Virus record (IMG/VR): IMGVR_UViG_2563366881_000003
DNA length: 43,633 nucleotides
Strand: one strand, 5' to 3'
Source: a virus
Taxonomy: Duplodnaviria; Heunggongvirae; Uroviricota; Caudoviricetes
The notes below the pieces were generated by a model, which had not been told where the DNA came from, ran no database searches, and saw only the letters and a list, made by a program, of their open reading frames with translations. Positions within the stretch are counted from its first letter, which is position 1. Every line of letters begins with the position of its first letter. The translations under genes were made by a program, and so were the position numbers. Shown here piece after piece: positions 9,242 through 38,400 of the stretch.

Positions 9242-9775
9242 TTACTGGCTCCGTCCATGATTTTCATGAAAGCCATATAGTGCATTGGCTTCTTTCCTTG
9301 CTTGTTTGGCATCATCTAAAAGTTTGAATGAGCCTAGGTATTTTCGTTTTCCATCCACAGTTATCGATGCAACATAAAACCCATGCTCTTTTCTTTCTTC
9401 AACACCTGTAACTCCAGTTGATGAAGATGATTTTAAAGGCATGTTTTTCATATTCTCTTTGAAAGAAACGCTTCTTAAATTGGAGATTCTGTTGTCATCC
9501 TTAACGCCGTTTATGTGATCAATCACATCAGGCCAGTAGCCATGCACGTAAAGCCATGCAAGTCTGTGAGACTTAAATTTTTTACCTCCAATATTTATTC
9601 TCAGATAACCCTTGTTGTCAGGTGAGCCAGCCTTTTTACCTGGATACTTCTTGTTCCACGTCAAGGCAGCTCTGTTATCCGCAAACAAATGCTTTGCTCT
9701 CGGCTTCCAATAAAAGTCACCACTCACAGGATTGTAATGAAGAATCTCCCTTACAGACACTTGAGTAAGATCCAC
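9242..9775 (-). CDS. HNH endonuclease with AP2-like DNA-binding domain (paralog 1)
   Basis: Motif HRLAWLYVHG...IDHINGVKDDNRISNLR, C-terminal GV(T/S)... AP2-like segment; paralogous to three other ORFs in the window. Confidence 0.8.
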   Translation of the reverse strand: MDLTQVSVREILHYNPVSGDFYWKPRAKHLFADNRAALTWNKKYPGKKAGSPDNKGYLRINIGGKKFKSHRLAWLYVHGYWPDVIDHINGVKDDNRISNLRSVSFKENMKNMPLKSSSSTGVTGVEERKEHGFYVASITVDGKRKYLGSFKLLDDAKQARKEANALYGFHENHGRSQ

Positions 9776-10017: not shown

Positions 10018-10725
10018 TTATCCGAATCGCTTGTAATCGATTGACTGCCTAATGAGGACTTTGGCTAGAATGTGAAGTTGCTCTTCTTCACCTTCTTCTA
10101 TGTACCATCGATCATAAGCGGCATTGTCAGAGATGACGGCAAGCCTGTTCTTTTGCATTTGCAGGCGCTTAACGTGCATTGTTTTCCCGTATACAAACAC
10201 ATAAATGCCATCGCCATCAAAATAGGTTATGGATACATCAACAAAGATCTCATCTCCCGGATTGATGGTTCCCTCCATGCTGTCACCGCGAACCGTGATG
10301 ACTTTTACGCTTTCCTGTGGCCTTCCATTAAATAAAATTCTTGCCTGCTCGGGCGTATATTCAATTGCTCTTATCTTTTCTATAAATTCATTGGAAACCA
10401 TGGTTCCTGGCCCGGCGCTCGCCTGAACATCCAATACATCAACACGATAAGAATCATTTGATCTTGATAGATGATTTACCGTGATACCGTCATAATCAGC
10501 ATAGCCATGCAGATATGCAGCAGTAGTTCCCAGCACCGAAGCCAGAGATTCCATCTTGTCTTTTCTTGGTATTGACTCCCCGTTGAACCATTTACTAATG
10601 GCTTTTGGTGTGACCTTAAGCCTGACAGCTAAATCAGCCTGCCTACCATGCAAAGGTAATCCCGCTTTATCACAGGCCAGCGCAAGCCTCTGCGAGAAAG
10701 TTTCACGCTCTTTCTGTTGAACCAT
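10018..10725 (-). CDS. cI: CI-type prophage repressor (HTH plus S24 LexA-like peptidase domain)
   Basis: C-terminal GDSMEGTINPGDEIFVD ... HVKRL (Ser/Lys dyad); start at MVQQKE (ATG 10725) lies inside an operator palindrome with no SD, consistent with a leaderless transcript. Confidence 0.8.
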   Translation of the reverse strand: MVQQKERETFSQRLALACDKAGLPLHGRQADLAVRLKVTPKAISKWFNGESIPRKDKMESLASVLGTTAAYLHGYADYDGITVNHLSRSNDSYRVDVLDVQASAGPGTMVSNEFIEKIRAIEYTPEQARILFNGRPQESVKVITVRGDSMEGTINPGDEIFVDVSITYFDGDGIYVFVYGKTMHVKRLQMQKNRLAVISDNAAYDRWYIEEGEEEQLHILAKVLIRQSIDYKRFG

Positions 10726-10733
10726 AAGTTCAA
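10717..10733. promoter_or_regulatory. Operator (OR3/OR2-like) palindrome TTGAACcataaGTTCAA overlapping the cI start codon
   Basis: 17-bp site with perfect 6-bp inverted half-sites; a second copy occurs 57 bp away. Confidence 0.6.
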
Positions 10734-10745
10734 CTATATTAGGTA

Positions 10746-10790
10746 TTGACTGTACTATCAGTTCCGTCATAATATGAACCATAAGTTCAC
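10746..10790 (+). promoter_or_regulatory. pR-like promoter (TTGACT-16/17-CATAAT) with OR1-like operator TGAACcataaGTTCA at 10775-10789
   Basis: Consensus-like sigma70 hexamers upstream of cro; operator palindrome overlaps the transcription start region. Confidence 0.6.
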
Positions 10791-10804
10791 CACAGGAGAG
10801 AAGC

Positions 10805-11035
10805 ATGAACGAAGTTACGTTTGGAGAAGTTATCAAATCCGTTCGAGTTTCTGTTGTGGCTGATGTTTGTGGACTTACGCCAAAAGCCATCTATAAGTGG
10901 CTTGAGCGTGGTTCTCTGCCGCGTACCGAGTTCACTGGTGAAACCGAATATGCGGATAAGATCGCCAAGGCATCAGGCGGCAAGTACTCAGCAGCACAGA
11001 TTCGCCGTATCGGTAAACAGCAGTTTGTTATGTAA
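10805..11035 (+). CDS. cro: Cro-like repressor
   Basis: 76-aa HTH-like protein divergent from cI, SD AGGAGAG upstream. Confidence 0.7.
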   Translation: MNEVTFGEVIKSVRVSVVADVCGLTPKAIYKWLERGSLPRTEFTGETEYADKIAKASGGKYSAAQIRRIGKQQFVM

Positions 11036-11647: not shown

Positions 11648-12464
11648 GTTAGCTGATTACAGGCCTCAACTGGAGGTCGTGGAGCATCGCGTGGCAGAAC
11701 TCGAAGATGGCTACACTCGGACTGCAAACACACTGTTAGAAGCCGCCATGCTTTCTGGACTTACTCTACATCAGTTACTGATTGTTATGGCTGTGTGGCG
11801 CAAGACATACGGTTACAACAAAAAAATAGATTGGATCGGAAACGAACAGTTCGCTGAACTCACTGGCATGGCACCAACCAAATGCTCTACCGCCAAAAAC
11901 GAGCTTATCAGAATGGGAGTTCTCATTCAGGTGGGGCGTCAAGTTGGTATGAATACAAACATTTCCGAGTGGAAAACGAAAGTTAACGGATTCGGTAAAA
12001 CATTTACTAATTCAGTAAAACAAACCTTCACTAAATCGGTAAAAAGCAATTTACCGAATCAGTCAAACACAAAAGACAATATACAAAAGACAATAAATAC
12101 AAATACCCCCTTACCCCCTAACGGGGGCGGCGATGGGAAGGTTAAACCTGAACGTCGCAAGGCAGAACGCATCGACTACGAATCCTTCCTGAACGCCTAC
12201 AACACCGAAGTCGGTGACAGACTGCCACACGCTGTTGCGGTCAACGAGAAACGCAAACGCCGCCTGAAGAAAATCATCCCGCAACTGAAAACGCCAAACG
12301 TGGACGGTTTCAGAGCGTATGTCAGGGCGTTTGTGCATCAGGCCAAGCCGTTTTACTTCGGAGACAACGACACGGGCTGGACGGCCGATTTTGATTACCT
12401 GTTGAGGGAAGATTCGTTAACGGGAGTACGGGAAGGGAAGTTTGCAGACAGGGGGATTGCATGA
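11634..12464 (+). CDS. Replication initiator, lambda O / P22 gp18-like
   Basis: N-terminal region resembles recalled lambda O (…[15 protein letters not shown]…WRKTYGYNK…); internal iteron/AT-rich origin. Confidence 0.8.
11995..12120 (+). repeat. Replication origin: iterons TC(G/A)GTAAAA at 12001, 12021 and 12045 plus AT-rich tract, inside the O-like gene
   Basis: Three direct repeats and one inverted partial copy followed by an A/T-rich stretch, as in ori-lambda. Confidence 0.6.
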
Positions 12465-13837: not shown

Positions 13838-13909
13838 CCATCTACATCACTGAGCTTGTAACAGGCCTGCTGGTAATCGCAGGCCTTTTTATTTGGGGGA
13901 GGGTAAATC

Positions 13910-14614: not shown

Positions 14615-15025
14615 GTGAAGCAAACAATCTTCCTCAGAACTAAGCAACAACAGTAAGCCGCAATCAACGCCATCCTCGCAACACCACTCGATAAAGACAA
14701 GCCAGTCACCATCCGCATTACTGACTACAAGCGCAACCTTGACCAGAACGCAAAATTTCACGCGATGGTCGCAGATATCGCCAGGCAAGTTCAGTGGCGC
14801 GATAAATGGTTAAAACCAGAACAATGGAAGGTTTTGTTGATAAGCGGTCATGCAGTGGCAACAAAGCAGGAAGCTGATGTTTTGCCCGGGCTTGAAGGCG
14901 AATACGTCAACATTCGCGAAAGCAGCGCGCAGATGAGTGTGAAGCGTATGGCAAGTCTGATTGAGTACACGACAGCATGGGCTATTGGTCAGGGTGTCAG
15001 ATTTACCGACAGGAGGTACGAATGA
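14615..15025 (+). pseudogene. ninB: ninB (recombination protein NinB/Orf) interrupted by an in-frame TAA at 14654-14656
   Basis: GTG 14615 with AGGAG upstream encodes MKQTIFLRTKQQQ, then TAA, then the same frame continues AAINAILATPLDKDK...NLDQNAKFHAMVADIARQVQWRDKWL matching recalled lambda NinB across the stop; codons checked by hand. Confidence 0.7.
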
Positions 15026-15198: not shown

Positions 15199-15575
15199 CA
15201 ATGGATTATTCACAGTTAAGTGATTTTGAAATTAACTTAAAAGTCGCGCATATCGTGCTAGGAAAAAACAATTACGACTGGGATCCAGAAAAGAAAGAAG
15301 TTTACTTGGCTGGAATTGATGGTGGTGAGTTTTTGCCTTGCGGATATTTTGACCCATGTAATATGGCCGCTGACGCATATCCGATCATCACTGAAAACAA
15401 AATTAGCACCATGTGGATGACAGCGGAAAAAGAATGGTGCGCATGGTCAGGAGGTGATTTAGAGGAAGGTTGTTGGGAATGGGAAAATATTCCTGACTAC
15501 TGCTTCTGCGGTGAATCGCCTCTCCGCGCCGCCATGATTGTATTTCTCATGATGCAGGACGCCAATAATGCTTAG
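15195..15575 (+). CDS. Hypothetical nin-region protein, 126 aa
   Basis: Internal Met MTMDYSQ; start overlaps upstream stop (ATGA). Confidence 0.5.
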
Positions 15576-15744
15576 CCCATCCCAATCCCTTCAATACCAG
15601 AAAGAAAGCGTCGAGCGAGCTTTAACGTGCGCTAACTGCGGTCAGAAGCTGCATGTGCTGGAAGTTCACGTGTGCTCCGATTGCTGCGCAGAACTGATGA
15701 GCGATCCGAATAGCTCAATGTACGAGGAAGAAGACGATGAATGA
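15568..15744 (+). CDS. ninF: NinF-like protein
   Basis: 58 aa [30 protein letters not shown]... matches recalled lambda NinF; hand-translated. Confidence 0.65.
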   Translation: MLSPSQSLQYQKESVERALTCANCGQKLHVLEVHVCSDCCAELMSDPNSSMYEEEDDE

Positions 15745-16459
15745 GTTAATAAATGGCAATGCCATCAAAATGACAAGCATTGAAATCGCTGAGTTGGTTG
15801 GTAAGCGTCATGACAATGTGAAACGTACCATCGAAACGCTGGCTAAAAATGGTGTTATCCGGCTTCCTCAAATTGAGGTTTCCGAAAGAATCAATAACTT
15901 AGGGTTCAATGTTCAGTACGAGTATTACGTCTTCGAAGGCGAACAAGGAAAGCGAGACAGTATTGTCGTTGTAGCCCAGTTGTCGCCGGAATTCACCGCT
16001 CGTCTTGTTGACCGTTGGCGAGAGCTTGAAGAAGCTGCGGTTAATATCCCCAAAACGCTACCAGAAGCGTTGCGCCTTGCTGCTGATCTTGCTGAGCAGA
16101 AAATGCAACTGGAAAACCAGCTCGCAATTGCCGCACCTAAAGTTGAGTTTGCCGATCGCGTTGGCGAGGCCAGCGGAATTTTGATTGGAAACTTTGCAAA
16201 GGTTGTTGGAATTGGTCCAAACAAACTGTTTGCGTGGATGCGCGATCACAAAATCCTTATTGCTTCAGGTTCCCGGCGCAATGTGCCAATGCAGGAATAT
16301 ATGGATCGCGGCTATTTCACAGTGAAAGAAACAGCGGTCAACACAAATCACGGGATACAGATATCGTTCACCACAAAAATCACCGGGCGTGGTCAACAGT
16401 GGCTGACCAGAAAGCTGCTCGATAACGGAATGCTGAAAGTAACAGGGGAGGCTGCTTAA
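15737..16459 (+). CDS. Rha-family phage regulatory protein / antirepressor-like (KilAC-type C-terminal domain)
   Basis: N-terminal motif SIEIAELVGKRHDNVKRTIETL typical of Rha; 240 aa. Confidence 0.65.
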   Translation: MNELINGNAIKMTSIEIAELVGKRHDNVKRTIETLAKNGVIRLPQIEVSERINNLGFNVQYEYYVFEGEQGKRDSIVVVAQLSPEFTARLVDRWRELEEAAVNIPKTLPEALRLAADLAEQKMQLENQLAIAAPKVEFADRVGEASGILIGNFAKVVGIGPNKLFAWMRDHKILIASGSRRNVPMQEYMDRGYFTVKETAVNTNHGIQISFTTKITGRGQQWLTRKLLDNGMLKVTGEAA

Positions 16460-16749
16460 TGGCTAATCTACGCAAAGAAGCACGCGGCAGAGAATGCCAG
16501 GTACGTATTTACGGCGTATGCAATGGCAATCCTGAAACTACAGTTCTGGCACATTACCGGATGGCTGGAATTTGCGGAACGGGAATGAAGCCTGACGACC
16601 TGATCGGCGCATGGGCTTGTAGCGCGTGTCACGATGAAATCGACCGACGCACCTATAATCTCGACAACAAAGACGCCAGACTTTACCACCTCGAAGGCGT
16701 GATCAGGACGCAGGCGATACTGCTGAAGGAGGGGAAGATTAAGTCATGA
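16459..16749 (+). CDS. DUF1364 / YbcO-like putative zinc-binding nuclease
   Basis: 96 aa, motif ARGRECQVRIYGVCNGNPETTVLAH...CSACHDEIDRR recalled from DLP12 YbcO. Confidence 0.6.
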   Translation: MANLRKEARGRECQVRIYGVCNGNPETTVLAHYRMAGICGTGMKPDDLIGAWACSACHDEIDRRTYNLDNKDARLYHLEGVIRTQAILLKEGKIKS

Positions 16750-17270
16750 ACGGTAAAAGATATCCAACACAAAAAGAAATCAATGAATTGTATGAATATA
16801 ATAGCGAAACAGGTTTGTTTATATACAAGAGAAGAGAAAGTGTAAGAGAGTGCTGGAATTCAACATATGCCGGTAAGATTGCTGGTTCTATAGATGAAAA
16901 AGGATACGTTCGTATATCTGTAAATAAAAAAGTTTGTCGAGCTCATAGAATCGCATGGATATCCTTTTATGGAAGTGAACCTGATGGGGAAATTGACCAC
17001 ATAAATGGAGTTAAAAGCGATAACAGAATATGCAATTTGCGCGTTGTAGATGATAAACAGAACTCAAGGAACAGAAAAAAGCCTATTAATAATCGCTCTG
17101 GAGTAATGGGGGTTGCCTACTATAAGAAGAATAAAAAGTGGGGCGCATATATAAACAGTGATAATAAAAAGATATTTCTTGGATTATACGATGACATATC
17201 TCTAGCCGTTAATGCCAGAAAATTGGCGGAATCACGATTGGGGTATCACCATAATCATGGGAGAGGATAA
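16746..17270 (+). CDS. HNH endonuclease with AP2-like domain (paralog 2)
   Basis: HRIAWISFYG...IDHINGVKSDNRICNLR; inserted between the ybcO-like gene and rusA. Confidence 0.8.
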   Translation: MNGKRYPTQKEINELYEYNSETGLFIYKRRESVRECWNSTYAGKIAGSIDEKGYVRISVNKKVCRAHRIAWISFYGSEPDGEIDHINGVKSDNRICNLRVVDDKQNSRNRKKPINNRSGVMGVAYYKKNKKWGAYINSDNKKIFLGLYDDISLAVNARKLAESRLGYHHNHGRG

Positions 17271-17633: not shown

Positions 17634-17818
17634 ACGCCACAATTCAAACGATACCAGAGCTTCTTATCCAGACACGAGGCAATCAGACCGAAGTGGCGAG
17701 GATGCTTTCCTGCGCAAGAGGAACAGTGCTCAAGTACAACCGAGACAGCAAAGGTGAGCGTCACGTAATAGTTAACGGCGTCCTGATGGTCAAACAGGGC
17801 AAGAGGGGAAGACGATGA
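17630..17818 (+). CDS. ninH: NinH-like protein
   Basis: YGNQTEVARMLSCARGTVLKY matches recalled lambda NinH (YGNQTEVARRLKCSRGTVRKY). Confidence 0.75.
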   Translation: MNATIQTIPELLIQTRGNQTEVARMLSCARGTVLKYNRDSKGERHVIVNGVLMVKQGKRGRR

Positions 17819-30052: not shown

Positions 30053-31471
30053 ATGCCTATTCAGCAACTTCCGCTTATGAAAGGTGTCGGCAAAGACTTT
30101 CGAAACGCCGACTATATCGACTATCTGCCAGTGAATATGCTGGCTACACCCAAAGAAATACTCAACAGCAGCGGATATCTTCGCTCATTCCCGGGCATTG
30201 CCAAACGTTCTGATGTGAATGGTGTATCGCGCGGTGTCGAGTACAACATGGCGCAGAATGCTGTTTATCGCGTTTGCGGTGGCAAGTTGTATAAGGGCGA
30301 AAGCGAGGTCGGTGATGTTGCCGGAAGTGGTCGCGTATCAATGGCGCATGGTCGAACATCTCAGGCGGTAGGCGTTAATGGTCAACTGGTCGAATACCGC
30401 TATGATGGCACGGTTAAAACCGTCTCAAACTGGCCTACAGACAGCGGATTCACGCAGTATGAGTTAGGTTCGGTTCGCGACATTACGCGCTTGCGTGGGC
30501 GTTATGCGTGGTCAAAAGACGGCACTGATTCATGGTTTATCACTGATCTTGAAGACGAATCGCATCCTGACCGTTACAGTGCACAATATCGCGCAGAATC
30601 GCAGCCGGACGGCATCATCGGCATCGGAACATGGCGAGATTTCATCGTCTGCTTTGGTTCATCGACGATTGAATACTTTTCCCTGACTGGGGCAACCACC
30701 GTTGGTGCCGCGTTGTATGTCGCACAGCCATCGCTGATGGTGCAGAAAGGCATTGCCGGAACCTACTGTAAAACGCCGTTTGCTGATTCTTATGCGTTTA
30801 TCAGCAATCCGGCAACAGGTGCTCCGTCTGTATACATCATCGGCTCCGGTCAGGTGTCACCAATCGCCAGCGCGAGCATTGAGAAAATCCTCCGCTCCTA
30901 CACTGCTGATGAACTGGCTGATGGTGTGATGGAATCGCTGCGATTTGATGCTCATGAGTTGCTGATTATCCACCTTCCGCGCCATGTTCTCGTGTACGAC
31001 GCATCTTCAAGCGCCAATGGTCCGCAATGGTGTGTGCTGAAAACAGGACTGTATGATGATGTGTACCGCGCTATCGACTTCATTTACGAAGGCAATCAGA
31101 TAACGTGCGGAGATAAGCTGGAATCGGTTATCGGCAAATTGCAGTTCGATATCAGCAGCCAGTACGACAAACAACAGGAACACCTACTGTTTACTCCGTT
31201 GTTCAAAGCGGATAACGCCAGATGCTTCGATCTGGAGGTGGAATCATCCACTGGCGTAGCTCAATACGCCGACCGCCTGTTCCTCTCTGCAACCACTGAC
31301 GGCATAAATTACGGTCGTGAACAGATGATTGAGCAGAATGAACCGTTCGTTTACGACAAACGCGTTTTGTGGAAGCGAGTTGGGCGCATCAGGAAAAATG
31401 TCGGCTTCAAATTGCGCGTTATCACGAAGTCACCTGTAACTCTGTCTGGCTGCCAGATAAGGATTGAGTAA
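30053..31471 (+). CDS. Head-to-tail / DNA stabilisation protein, P22 gp10-like
   Basis: 472 aa at the conserved position after gp4. Confidence 0.7.
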
Positions 31472-37446: not shown

Positions 37447-37824
37447 CTATCTTATTGATTTACCATAATTATACATCTCAACATGAGCGCTGGCATACGC
37501 TCTCGCTGAATGATCATCAATTAAAGCTTTCTTTGCAGCTTTATAGTTATATTCCCATAATAAATTTGTATCATATGACTGATTTTCAATTCCTTTTTCA
37601 CAAGTAAATATCAATCCGTTTATTGTTGATATTTCAACCGGGCTAATTTTCCCATCGGTTCCACTGCGCAATCCTGAGAGGATAAGGTCTCTATCACCTG
37701 TAAGTAACTTGCGATAATAAACATCTGCTGCCTTTGCAGAGCATTCTGCACTAGATGCAAAAGATGCATTAGATATTATCAAAAGCATACCAATAAGAAT
37801 TAACTTTAGGGCGCTAACCTTCAT
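37447..37824 (-). CDS. Secreted (signal-peptide) protein, mnt-linked, about 125 aa
   Basis: N-terminal signal peptide MKVSALKLILIGMLLIISNASFASS; start overlaps mnt stop. Confidence 0.5.
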   Translation of the reverse strand: MKVSALKLILIGMLLIISNASFASSAECSAKAADVYYRKLLTGDRDLILSGLRSGTDGKISPVEISTINGLIFTCEKGIENQSYDTNLLWEYNYKAAKKALIDDHSARAYASAHVEMYNYGKSIR

Positions 37825-38071
37825 TGTTCTTGCCATAAATTCTTTTCAGTGTATCGAATACCATTTTTTTTACAATTTCAGACTGCTCATCAGCAATTTT
37901 CTCAGCTTCGTTGCGATAACCAACTACAGGAGATGGTTTTGATAGAGCGTCTTGGACGATTTGCAACAGCTCGGAGTTCATAGATCTCCCATTCGCCTCT
38001 GCTCTGAATTTCAATTTTTCTCTCACTTCCAAAGGCATGCGGAAGTTAAAGTGCGGATCATCTCTAGCCAT
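37814..38071 (-). CDS. mnt: Mnt repressor (P22 immI)
   Basis: MARDDPHFNFRMPLEVREKLKFRAEANGRSMNSELLQIVQDALSKPSP... matches recalled P22 Mnt. Confidence 0.9.
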   Translation of the reverse strand: MARDDPHFNFRMPLEVREKLKFRAEANGRSMNSELLQIVQDALSKPSPVVGYRNEAEKIADEQSEIVKKMVFDTLKRIYGKNNEG

Positions 38072-38093
38072 GCCGTTACTCCAAGTCAGTGTA

Positions 38094-38145
38094 TTGACAT
38101 GATAGAAGCAGTCTACTATATTCTCAATAGGTCCACCGTGGACCT
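38094..38145. promoter_or_regulatory. Pant/Pmnt control region: Pant TTGACA-17-TATATT, Oarc at 38099-38119, Omnt palindrome AGGTCCACCGTGGACCT at 38129-38145
   Basis: Oarc and Omnt match recalled P22 operators (one central change in each). Confidence 0.8.
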
Positions 38146-38161
38146 ATATTGTGAGGTGAAT

Positions 38162-38323
38162 ATGAAAGGAATGAGCAAGATGCCGCAGTTCAATTTGCGG
38201 TGGCCTAAAGAGGTATTGGATTTGGTACGCAAGGTGGCGGAAGAGAATGGTCGGTCTGTTAACTCTGAGATTTATCAGAGAGTAATGGAAAGCTTTAAGA
38301 AGGAAGGGCGCATTGGCGCGTAA
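38162..38323 (+). CDS. arc: Arc repressor (P22 immI)
   Basis: [53 protein letters not shown], 53 aa, matches recalled P22 Arc. Confidence 0.95.
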
Positions 38324-38324
38324 A

Positions 38325-38400
38325 GTTGAAGCCCCAACTGCGGGAACAGTCAGGGCTTCTGTTGTCAGTAAATCCGTGGAGAAAAACCAACATGAATAGT
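38325..38400 (-). ncRNA. sar-like antisense RNA covering the ant ribosome-binding region (candidate)
   Basis: Arc-ant intercistronic hairpin GAAGCCC...GGGCTTC at 38330-38361; P22 has sar here. Confidence 0.35.

Follow-up and report, generated by a model that had tools for sequence, protein, structure and literature searches.

A candidate Roi operator and a constrained IHF consensus lie within the recognition-helix segment of roi, a Rha/KilAC gene of a P22-like Escherichia coli prophage

Results

Identity and domain organisation of the Rha/KilAC gene

The gene examined here occupies positions 15737–16459 on the plus strand of the window, the term used throughout for the whole 43,633-nucleotide stretch that was analysed (IMG/VR record IMGVR_UViG_2563366881_000003), and encodes a protein of 240 amino acids between an ATG start and a TAA stop. 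The initial annotation had proposed a Rha/KilAC gene at this place, to be checked by profile search, and both domains were indeed recovered above their Pfam cut-offs in what is a real open reading frame. Phage_pRha (PF09669), a Rha-type winged-helix DNA-binding domain, matched residues 12–99 (15770–16033, plus strand) with 37.4 bits against a cut-off of 29.9, and ANT/KilAC (PF03374) matched residues 126–228 (16112–16420, plus strand) with 113.5 bits against a cut-off of 25.3, spanning 106 of the 108 profile positions. Under the stricter NCBIfam Rha model TIGR02681 the protein fell below the cut-off (17.9 versus 45.95 bits). The Pfam domains P22_AR_N and P22_AR_C were absent from it and present in the product of immI ant, located elsewhere in the window. 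PHROG 63, labelled "anti-repressor Ant", matched at 1.2e-99, and the RefSeq name of the family is the same. A search of solved structures by sequence found no relative of the protein.

Sequence comparison identifies this gene as roi, a named phage gene that is already known and common. Its product is 99% identical to Roi of HK620, 99% identical to gp032 of Kapi1 (Kapi1_032) and 89% identical to Roi of HK022, and the gene order around it is the same in these three phages (ninF–roi–ybcO–rusA). It is orthologous by sequence to the HK022-type roi and, like it, is located between the replication genes and Q. In a survey of complete E. coli genomes, roi was present in 1110 out of 5426 (~20%), with up to four copies per genome; 7243 database proteins match Roi at E ≤ 1e-5, and matches to the roi region at the DNA level were found in 429 phage records.

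roi is embedded in the nin operon of a mosaic prophage

The placement of the gene in the nin region, as initially annotated, was confirmed by its flanking elements. A tR2-like intrinsic terminator (13863–13886, plus strand), at the position of the annotated tR2 of HK620, lies 5′ of the nin operon and is followed by a truncated ninB, ninE, ninX, ninF, roi, a ybcO-type (DUF1364) gene, an HNH gene, rusA, ninH and the Q-type late antiterminator gene (17815–18333, plus strand), which stands 3′ of roi in the same operon; a pR′-like promoter is found at 18311–18340. The ATG of roi overlaps the stop of its upstream neighbour ninF (15568–15744, plus strand) by 8 nt, its TAA overlaps the ATG of the downstream ybcO-type gene (16459–16749, plus strand), and a search around roi for a sigma-70-like promoter or a LexA box found none nearby. 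Read from this arrangement, roi is a delayed-early gene that is transcribed from pR. Since it overlaps both neighbours, has no promoter or LexA box close to it and is preceded by the tR2-like terminator, it should be expressed only after the repressor has failed, and no expression control apart from the regulon of the main repressor, such as a functional antirepressor would have, was found for it.

Two features of the operon concern its other genes. The ninB gene (14765–15025, plus strand) is seemingly truncated at its 5′ end, with an 86-aa ORF that corresponds to positions 63–147 of the 161-position NinB profile. The HNH gene is one of three HNH_3 homing-endonuclease-type genes in the window, found at 9242–9775 (minus strand), 16746–17270 (plus strand) and 18528–19040 (plus strand). 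Compared with Kapi1 and HK620, the gene at 16746 is inserted between rusA and the ybcO-type gene. The gene at 18528, which has an additional AP2 domain, separates pR′ from the holin gene; in Kapi1 this interval is occupied by two tRNA genes, and no tRNA genes were found in the window.

As a whole, the window corresponds to a P22-like, mosaic prophage of E. coli with a lambda-type integrase, CI, cII, O, a DnaB-type helicase and Q, whose early half is covered to at most 40% by any known phage. The CI-type repressor gene (10018–10890, minus strand), the true start of which may be internal, encodes an HTH_3 and a Peptidase_S24 domain and is of the self-cleaving type. The immI region (37814–39294) is intact, is 87% identical in DNA to that of P22, and comprises mnt (37814–38071, minus strand; Arc and Repressor_Mnt domains), arc (38162–38323, plus strand) and ant (38392–39294, plus strand; P22_AR_N and P22_AR_C domains). 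The coexistence of a Rha-family gene with a P22-type mnt–arc–ant circuit, to which the initial annotation had drawn attention, is thus real; P22 itself has rha together with mnt–arc–ant, so the combination is not unusual. An ORF of 200 aa that directly follows the lysis genes (20946–21548, plus strand), at the position of rha in P22, was considered as a third Rha gene and rejected in view of its Tad2-like domain (Thoeris anti-defence 2; PF11195, 1.2e-21), and the PHROG that it matches best has no assigned function. A PBP-family (phosphatidylethanolamine-binding) gene lies beyond the tailspike gene (41918–42394, minus strand), followed by an IS605-type OrfB/TnpB gene that is cut off by the window end (42503–43633, plus strand), and these two genes probably mark the right edge of the prophage or a moron region.

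The variable segment of Roi coincides with the predicted recognition helix and wing

Comparison of Roi from the window with that of HK022 placed nearly all of their divergence in residues 22–64, and the last ~175 residues of the HK022 protein differ from the window at one position only (V77I). In the DNA, this variable cassette (15799–15924, plus strand; about codons 22–63) forms a block of ~130 bp that is ~55% identical to HK022 between near-identical flanks. At least nine alleles of the variable segment were found among the 120 closest proteins, and DNA was obtained for each of nine close alleles. A first scan of viral contigs with the Roi protein returned 80 loci that were all of one allele and uninformative on covariation; the wider sample of 69 peptide variants of the cassette came from viral contigs searched for the conserved motif FEGEQGKRD. 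By sequence comparison, the N-terminal winged helix is the sole strongly variable part of Roi.

An AF2 model built from 25 close homologues had a mean pLDDT of 45.6 and was usable in the N-domain only, where pLDDT values of 69–83 accompanied a strand (residues 11–13), two helices (14–21 and 25–37) and a beta-hairpin (45–52/58–67). Foldseek against the PDB gave no match at E ≤ 0.001, and only faint ones to winged-helix proteins (PadR, TFE). According to this model, residues 25–37 (HDNVKRTIETLAK; codons at 15809–15847, plus strand) and the hairpin are predicted to form the recognition helix and the wing of a winged-helix fold, and both are part of the variable cassette.

An allele-specific palindrome is maintained within the variable segment

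Codons 44–48 of roi contain a perfect 6-1-6 palindrome, CCTCAAaTTGAGG (15866–15878), which occurs as a single exact copy in the 43.6-kb window and which we regard as a candidate Roi operator. A perfect palindrome with a 1-nt centre is present at the same place, gene nt 136, in six of the nine close alleles, and two further alleles have one mismatch in it. Four independent palindrome types were distinguished at this position: CCTCAAaTTGAGG in the window, CCTGCAtTGCAGG, ACTCCGcCGGAGT and TCCCCCAaTGGGGGA. When synonymous codons were resampled with the protein held fixed, these four types gave P values of 0.019, 0.027, 0.008 and 0.0016, with a product of ~6e-9. Homologues from Citrobacter and Izhakiella, which are 43–45% identical and have the helix of the window, contain TCCTCAAaTTGAGGA and a 23-bp CTTTTCCTCAAtTTGAGGAAAAG at the same position.

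The wider sample extended this pattern. Across the 69 variants, the anchored centre had on average 5.38 of 6 complementary pairs, as compared with 1.53 at other centres, and all six pairs were complementary in 43 variants, a state reached by 0.02% of control centres. Among 44 distinct DNA variants, position ±2 of the palindrome is an A–T pair in 25 and a C–G pair in 19, with zero mismatches, and position ±4 shows four complementary pair types; six different perfect half-sites occur at the anchored centre across the 69 variants. The core of the palindrome also tracks the type of helix across differing wings and C-termini: KRTIETL pairs with CCTCAAaTTGAGG (including 23- and 29-bp versions), KRTIERL with CCTCCAaTGGAGG, K[IV]SI[ED]RL with CCTGCAtTGCAGG, KQSIERL with CCCCCAaTGGGGG and KRAIERI with a 25-bp CCACCAaTGGTGG version, and alleles of the NVRISIERL type have degenerate palindromes with 3–4 of 6 pairs. 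The palindrome of each phage is single-copy in its own locus and likewise in the complete sequences of HK022, HK620 and the window. The association between helix and palindrome could partly reflect linkage, with the two lying ~50 bp apart; the compensatory symmetry is the stronger argument for an operator in these sequences, and as a predicted binding site of Roi the palindrome is well supported by the comparison.

The pattern does not extend to the wider Rha family. P22 rha has no palindrome at the equivalent position, and among 50 wider Rha variants 12% were palindromic (arms of at least 5) versus 12.7% in controls, with no enrichment; the exceptions were a few variants whose helices are Roi-like and which share the CCTCAAA/TTTGAGG core. 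We therefore make the operator claim for the Roi clade and close relatives only.

A palindrome that owes nothing to protein binding, and that arose by chance, as an RNA hairpin or as a by-product of the amino acid sequence, is a highly improbable explanation of these data. It can draw on the shortness of 6-bp arms, on a probability of ~0.18 for one 6-1-6 palindrome somewhere in 723 nt, and on the presence of an unrelated second palindrome in the conserved 5′ part of roi, but chance fits poorly with one and the same codon position being palindromic in 43 of 69 variants through compensatory changes in both arms. A by-product is improbable given the resampling with proteins held fixed, and an RNA hairpin could not make use of symmetry that extends up to a 1-nt centre; the hairpin was rejected also for a predicted fold no better than that of shuffled sequence (z = −0.75).

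Several other palindromes were recorded. The second perfect 6-1-6 palindrome of roi, ATGGCAaTGCCAT (15753–15765, gene nt 17–29), is intact in four of nine alleles and has a single-base disruption in the remaining ones, shows no covariation and may be due to chance. A copy of the roi palindrome with one mismatch, CCTCAAcTGGAGG, found 30 nt into replication gene O (11664–11676), was considered as a second operator and is treated as chance, given an expectation of ~0.1 per window (~10%) and its absence from other phages with the same roi allele. The complete HK022 genome has six one-mismatch copies of its 11-bp palindrome versus 1.2 expected from simple shuffles, two of them identical (ATGCAATGCAG, at 31234 and 33662); the HK022 word is rich in common codons, and these copies may reflect codon-usage bias or weak secondary sites. 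Directly 5′ of one roi allele, a separate 142-aa Rha-only gene (L088, 1076–1504; also in L287, L239 and L281) has a 22-bp perfect palindrome, ATTCACTCAAATTTGAGTGAAT, just 3′ of its recognition-helix codons, and Rha genes related to it have CCTCAAATTTGAGG at the same place.

An IHF consensus beside the palindrome is constrained at the DNA level

An IHF consensus, AATCAATAACTTA (15889–15901, plus strand), starts 10 bp past the palindrome on the (R)-I-N-N-L codons, so that, as far as sequence can tell, roi contains both a candidate Roi site (15866–15878) and a candidate IHF site. The consensus is found 10 bp 3′ of the palindrome in most alleles. At the homologous position HK022 has AATCAATGATTTA, which is the sole exact IHF consensus match in 10.7 kb; the two HK022 GenBank records have no Roi or IHF site annotated. 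In all of 16 DNA haplotypes, Ile is encoded by ATC and Leu by TTA, the codons that the IHF consensus calls for, whereas the adjacent Gly codon, which is outside the consensus, uses all four synonymous codons, and the codons under the N positions of the consensus are variable. The fixation of the Ile and Leu codons next to a free Gly codon points to a constraint on the DNA and not only on the protein.

The identical 13-mer is present on the INNLG codons of P22 rha (39575–40180; gene nt 261), which places the IHF site in the same structural element of roi and rha, the two genes named for the IHF phenotype. Arm length in palindromic alleles has a median of 9 where the IHF site is absent and of 6 where it is present (in raw counts that ignore relatedness). 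The P1 record contains a predicted IHF site inside ant1 (48945–48957), near the start of ant2, and thus another antirepressor-type gene has an intragenic IHF site.

Relation of Roi to antirepressors and to AriS

The C-terminal half of Roi (residues 73–234; 15953–16438, plus strand), consisting of a helical linker and KilAC, matches the C-terminal half of P1 Ant1, a proven antirepressor, with 59% identity over 165 residues (E 2e-66), and no similarity to Ant1 was found for the residues before 73. According to the P1 record, Ant1 antagonises C1 within an Ant1/Ant2/C1 complex. Against the immI Ant of the window, Roi gave a single marginal match of 37 residues (E 6e-4, in one comparison). Roi being unrelated to immI Ant, the window has two distinct antirepressor-type genes, and the label "antirepressor-type" holds for roi as a statement of sequence homology. 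The initial claim of a second antirepressor-type gene is accordingly upheld as to homology with P1 Ant1 and distinctness from immI Ant, and left without support as to antirepressor function: no experiments on antirepressor activity of any Roi were found in the literature searched. In Stx-type contexts (L085 746–1426, L092 722–1426), an "Ant" gene with ORF6N and P22_AR_C domains was observed 75 bp upstream of roi, which makes two antirepressor-type genes adjacent in the nin region.

A further regulator with a characterised C-terminal domain is AriS of the Listeria phage phi10403S, whose KilAC domain inhibits the SOS response on overexpression (Azulay et al. 2022, PMC9043618). In that study, overexpression of KilAC alone, but not its native level, was enough to prevent lysis and the expression of SOS genes; the N-domain was found to act on genes of the phage itself, and pRha + KilAC was listed among the architectures of the AriS-like family (PMC9043618). 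Roi has this architecture of the AriS-like dual-function regulators. By inhibiting the SOS response, a KilAC domain of the AriS kind works against induction.

Discussion

Judged from its sequence and that of its alleles, roi is most likely a DNA-binding regulator of its own gene and not a second prophage-waking switch. The initial annotation had seen in it an independent route to derepression; this was not borne out for a gene that is embedded in an operon, has no promoter or LexA box of its own and encodes an N-domain apparently aimed at its own gene. In hosts defective in IHF, Rha of P22 and phi80 prevents phage growth, and IHF regulates rha. This phenotype, the operon position of roi and the finding on the AriS-type KilAC domain together make roi an improbable independent trigger of its own prophage; cross-talk through the Ant1-like domain, in either direction, is conceivable.

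The reading that we favour, and consider rather probable from the sequence comparisons, is that roi is a self-targeting, IHF-assisted autoregulator with an Ant1-like effector domain. A Roi dimer would bind the palindrome within its own gene, IHF would bend the DNA beside the palindrome as a helper, and the resulting Roi–IHF complex would, by negative feedback, reduce transcription across roi and perhaps read-through to Q as well. Such feedback would hold down a potentially harmful C-terminal effector of the Ant1/KilAC type, and in IHF-deficient hosts its failure would lead to the block of phage growth, the phenotype for which roi and rha are named. Both the direction and the purpose of this feedback are what we infer here. 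For HK022, a 1996 study reportedly found a Roi binding site within roi adjacent to an IHF site, with IHF stabilising the Roi–DNA complex. Such a result fits a model of palindrome plus IHF, and the palindrome may be the site that was mapped.

The Ant1-like half of Roi also invites other readings. Were Roi a true antirepressor, its C-terminal half would inactivate the prophage's own CI or a co-resident repressor, for example that of a P1-like plasmid prophage, and would thereby open a second route to derepression or cross-talk beside immI Ant; jointly, such inactivation and such a route appear quite unlikely to us. The identity of residues 73–234 to P1 Ant1 (59%, E 2e-66), the name "anti-repressor Ant" in PHROG 63 and RefSeq, and the presence of another Ant-type gene directly upstream of roi in Stx-type phages would favour it, but the repressor of the window is an HTH_3/Peptidase_S24 protein, which we take to be of a different kind from P1 C1, and the N-domain of Roi is indicative of a DNA-binding function. 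Natural Stx2a phages with an IS629-disrupted roi also speak against an antirepressor, and no supporting experiment for any Roi was found in the literature. On the whole unlikely, too, is a role for Roi as an AriS-like dual regulator, in which the N-domain would tune phage genes and KilAC would damp the host SOS response after induction, probably via RecA, so that induction of co-resident SOS-dependent prophages would be lowered, not raised. Here, the block of SOS gene expression and lysis by overexpressed KilAC alone, the place of pRha + KilAC among the family architectures and the action of the N-domain on the phage's own genes (PMC9043618) are joined by the self-cleaving S24 type of the window repressor, by virtue of which the SOS level matters to the prophage; against this, the evidence comes from Listeria proteins, in which native levels did not produce the SOS effect that overexpression did (PMC9043618). 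SOS damping is compatible with the autoregulator model and could be the function of the Roi C-domain.

The autoregulator model could be carried one step further. The recognition helix and the operator lie within ~50 bp of each other and would therefore travel together on recombination as one specificity cassette. It is possible, if doubtful, that the Roi alleles are self-addressed specificity cassettes, whose helix and wing codons contain their own operator and whose action between phages is allele-specific. At least six specificities would then have diversified by compensatory change, moving as a ~130-bp block in the manner of immunity regions, and Roi could act on other lambdoid phages with its cassette, whether co-resident or co-infecting, for example by restraining read-through to Q. 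With roi in ~20% of complete E. coli genomes and up to four copies in one genome, Roi could act between co-resident phages. If true, the self-addressed cassettes would amount to a form of kin recognition or interference, and would also explain the IHF phenotype of Rha and Roi, which to our knowledge is still unexplained.

For annotation, these findings mean that the database label "anti-repressor Ant" on roi should not be taken as a second induction switch. The finding of a second antirepressor-type gene is itself of limited weight, with roi already named and present in about one-fifth of complete E. coli genomes and with P22 pairing rha with immI. What is new here, in the sequences compared, is the allele-specific palindrome, its symmetry preserved by compensatory changes, in the recognition-helix and wing segment of roi. 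The phenotype of roi and rha has been known since the 1980s and 1990s, and no mechanism for it was found in the accessible literature. The present comparison yields operator predictions allele by allele together with a DNA-constrained IHF site; with exact predictions of this kind, the old question of the Roi target and of the role of IHF becomes directly testable. If the predictions are true, an operator within the regulator's own recognition codons would constitute an unusually compact linkage of regulator and target through mosaic recombination.

Among known systems, the other annotated antirepressor of the window, the P22-type immI Ant, shares little with Roi beyond that annotation: it has P22_AR_N/P22_AR_C in place of pRha/KilAC and is governed by a dedicated mnt/arc circuit, whereas roi has none. 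P1 Ant1 (and likewise P1 KilA) has a helical linker and KilAC half like that of Roi, with the 59% identity over 165 residues given above, but P1 ant is controlled by the C4 antisense RNA and a C1-controlled operator, whereas roi is without a control region of its own. AriS of phi10403S differs from Roi in its N-domain, which is of the AntA/B type. P22 Rha resembles Roi at the opposite end of the protein: its winged-helix domain is 38% identical to that of Roi over 52 residues, including the INNLG motif, no similarity was found between it and the KilAC half of Roi, and Rha of P22 and phi80 shares with Roi the named phenotype of a growth block in IHF-deficient hosts. P22 rha differs in lying after the lysis genes and not in the nin region, as well as in the palindrome that it lacks at the equivalent position. 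HK022, HK97 and HK620 have this very gene, likewise located between the replication genes and Q and flanked by the same genes. HK620 differs from the window in that its mnt and ant survive only as remnants, whereas the immI region of the window is intact. HK022 has an IHF consensus at the homologous intragenic position, as in the window, and differs in the allele of its helix and wing (residues 22–64) and, with it, in the palindrome, which reads CTGCAtTGCAG in HK022 and CCTCAAaTTGAGG in the window.
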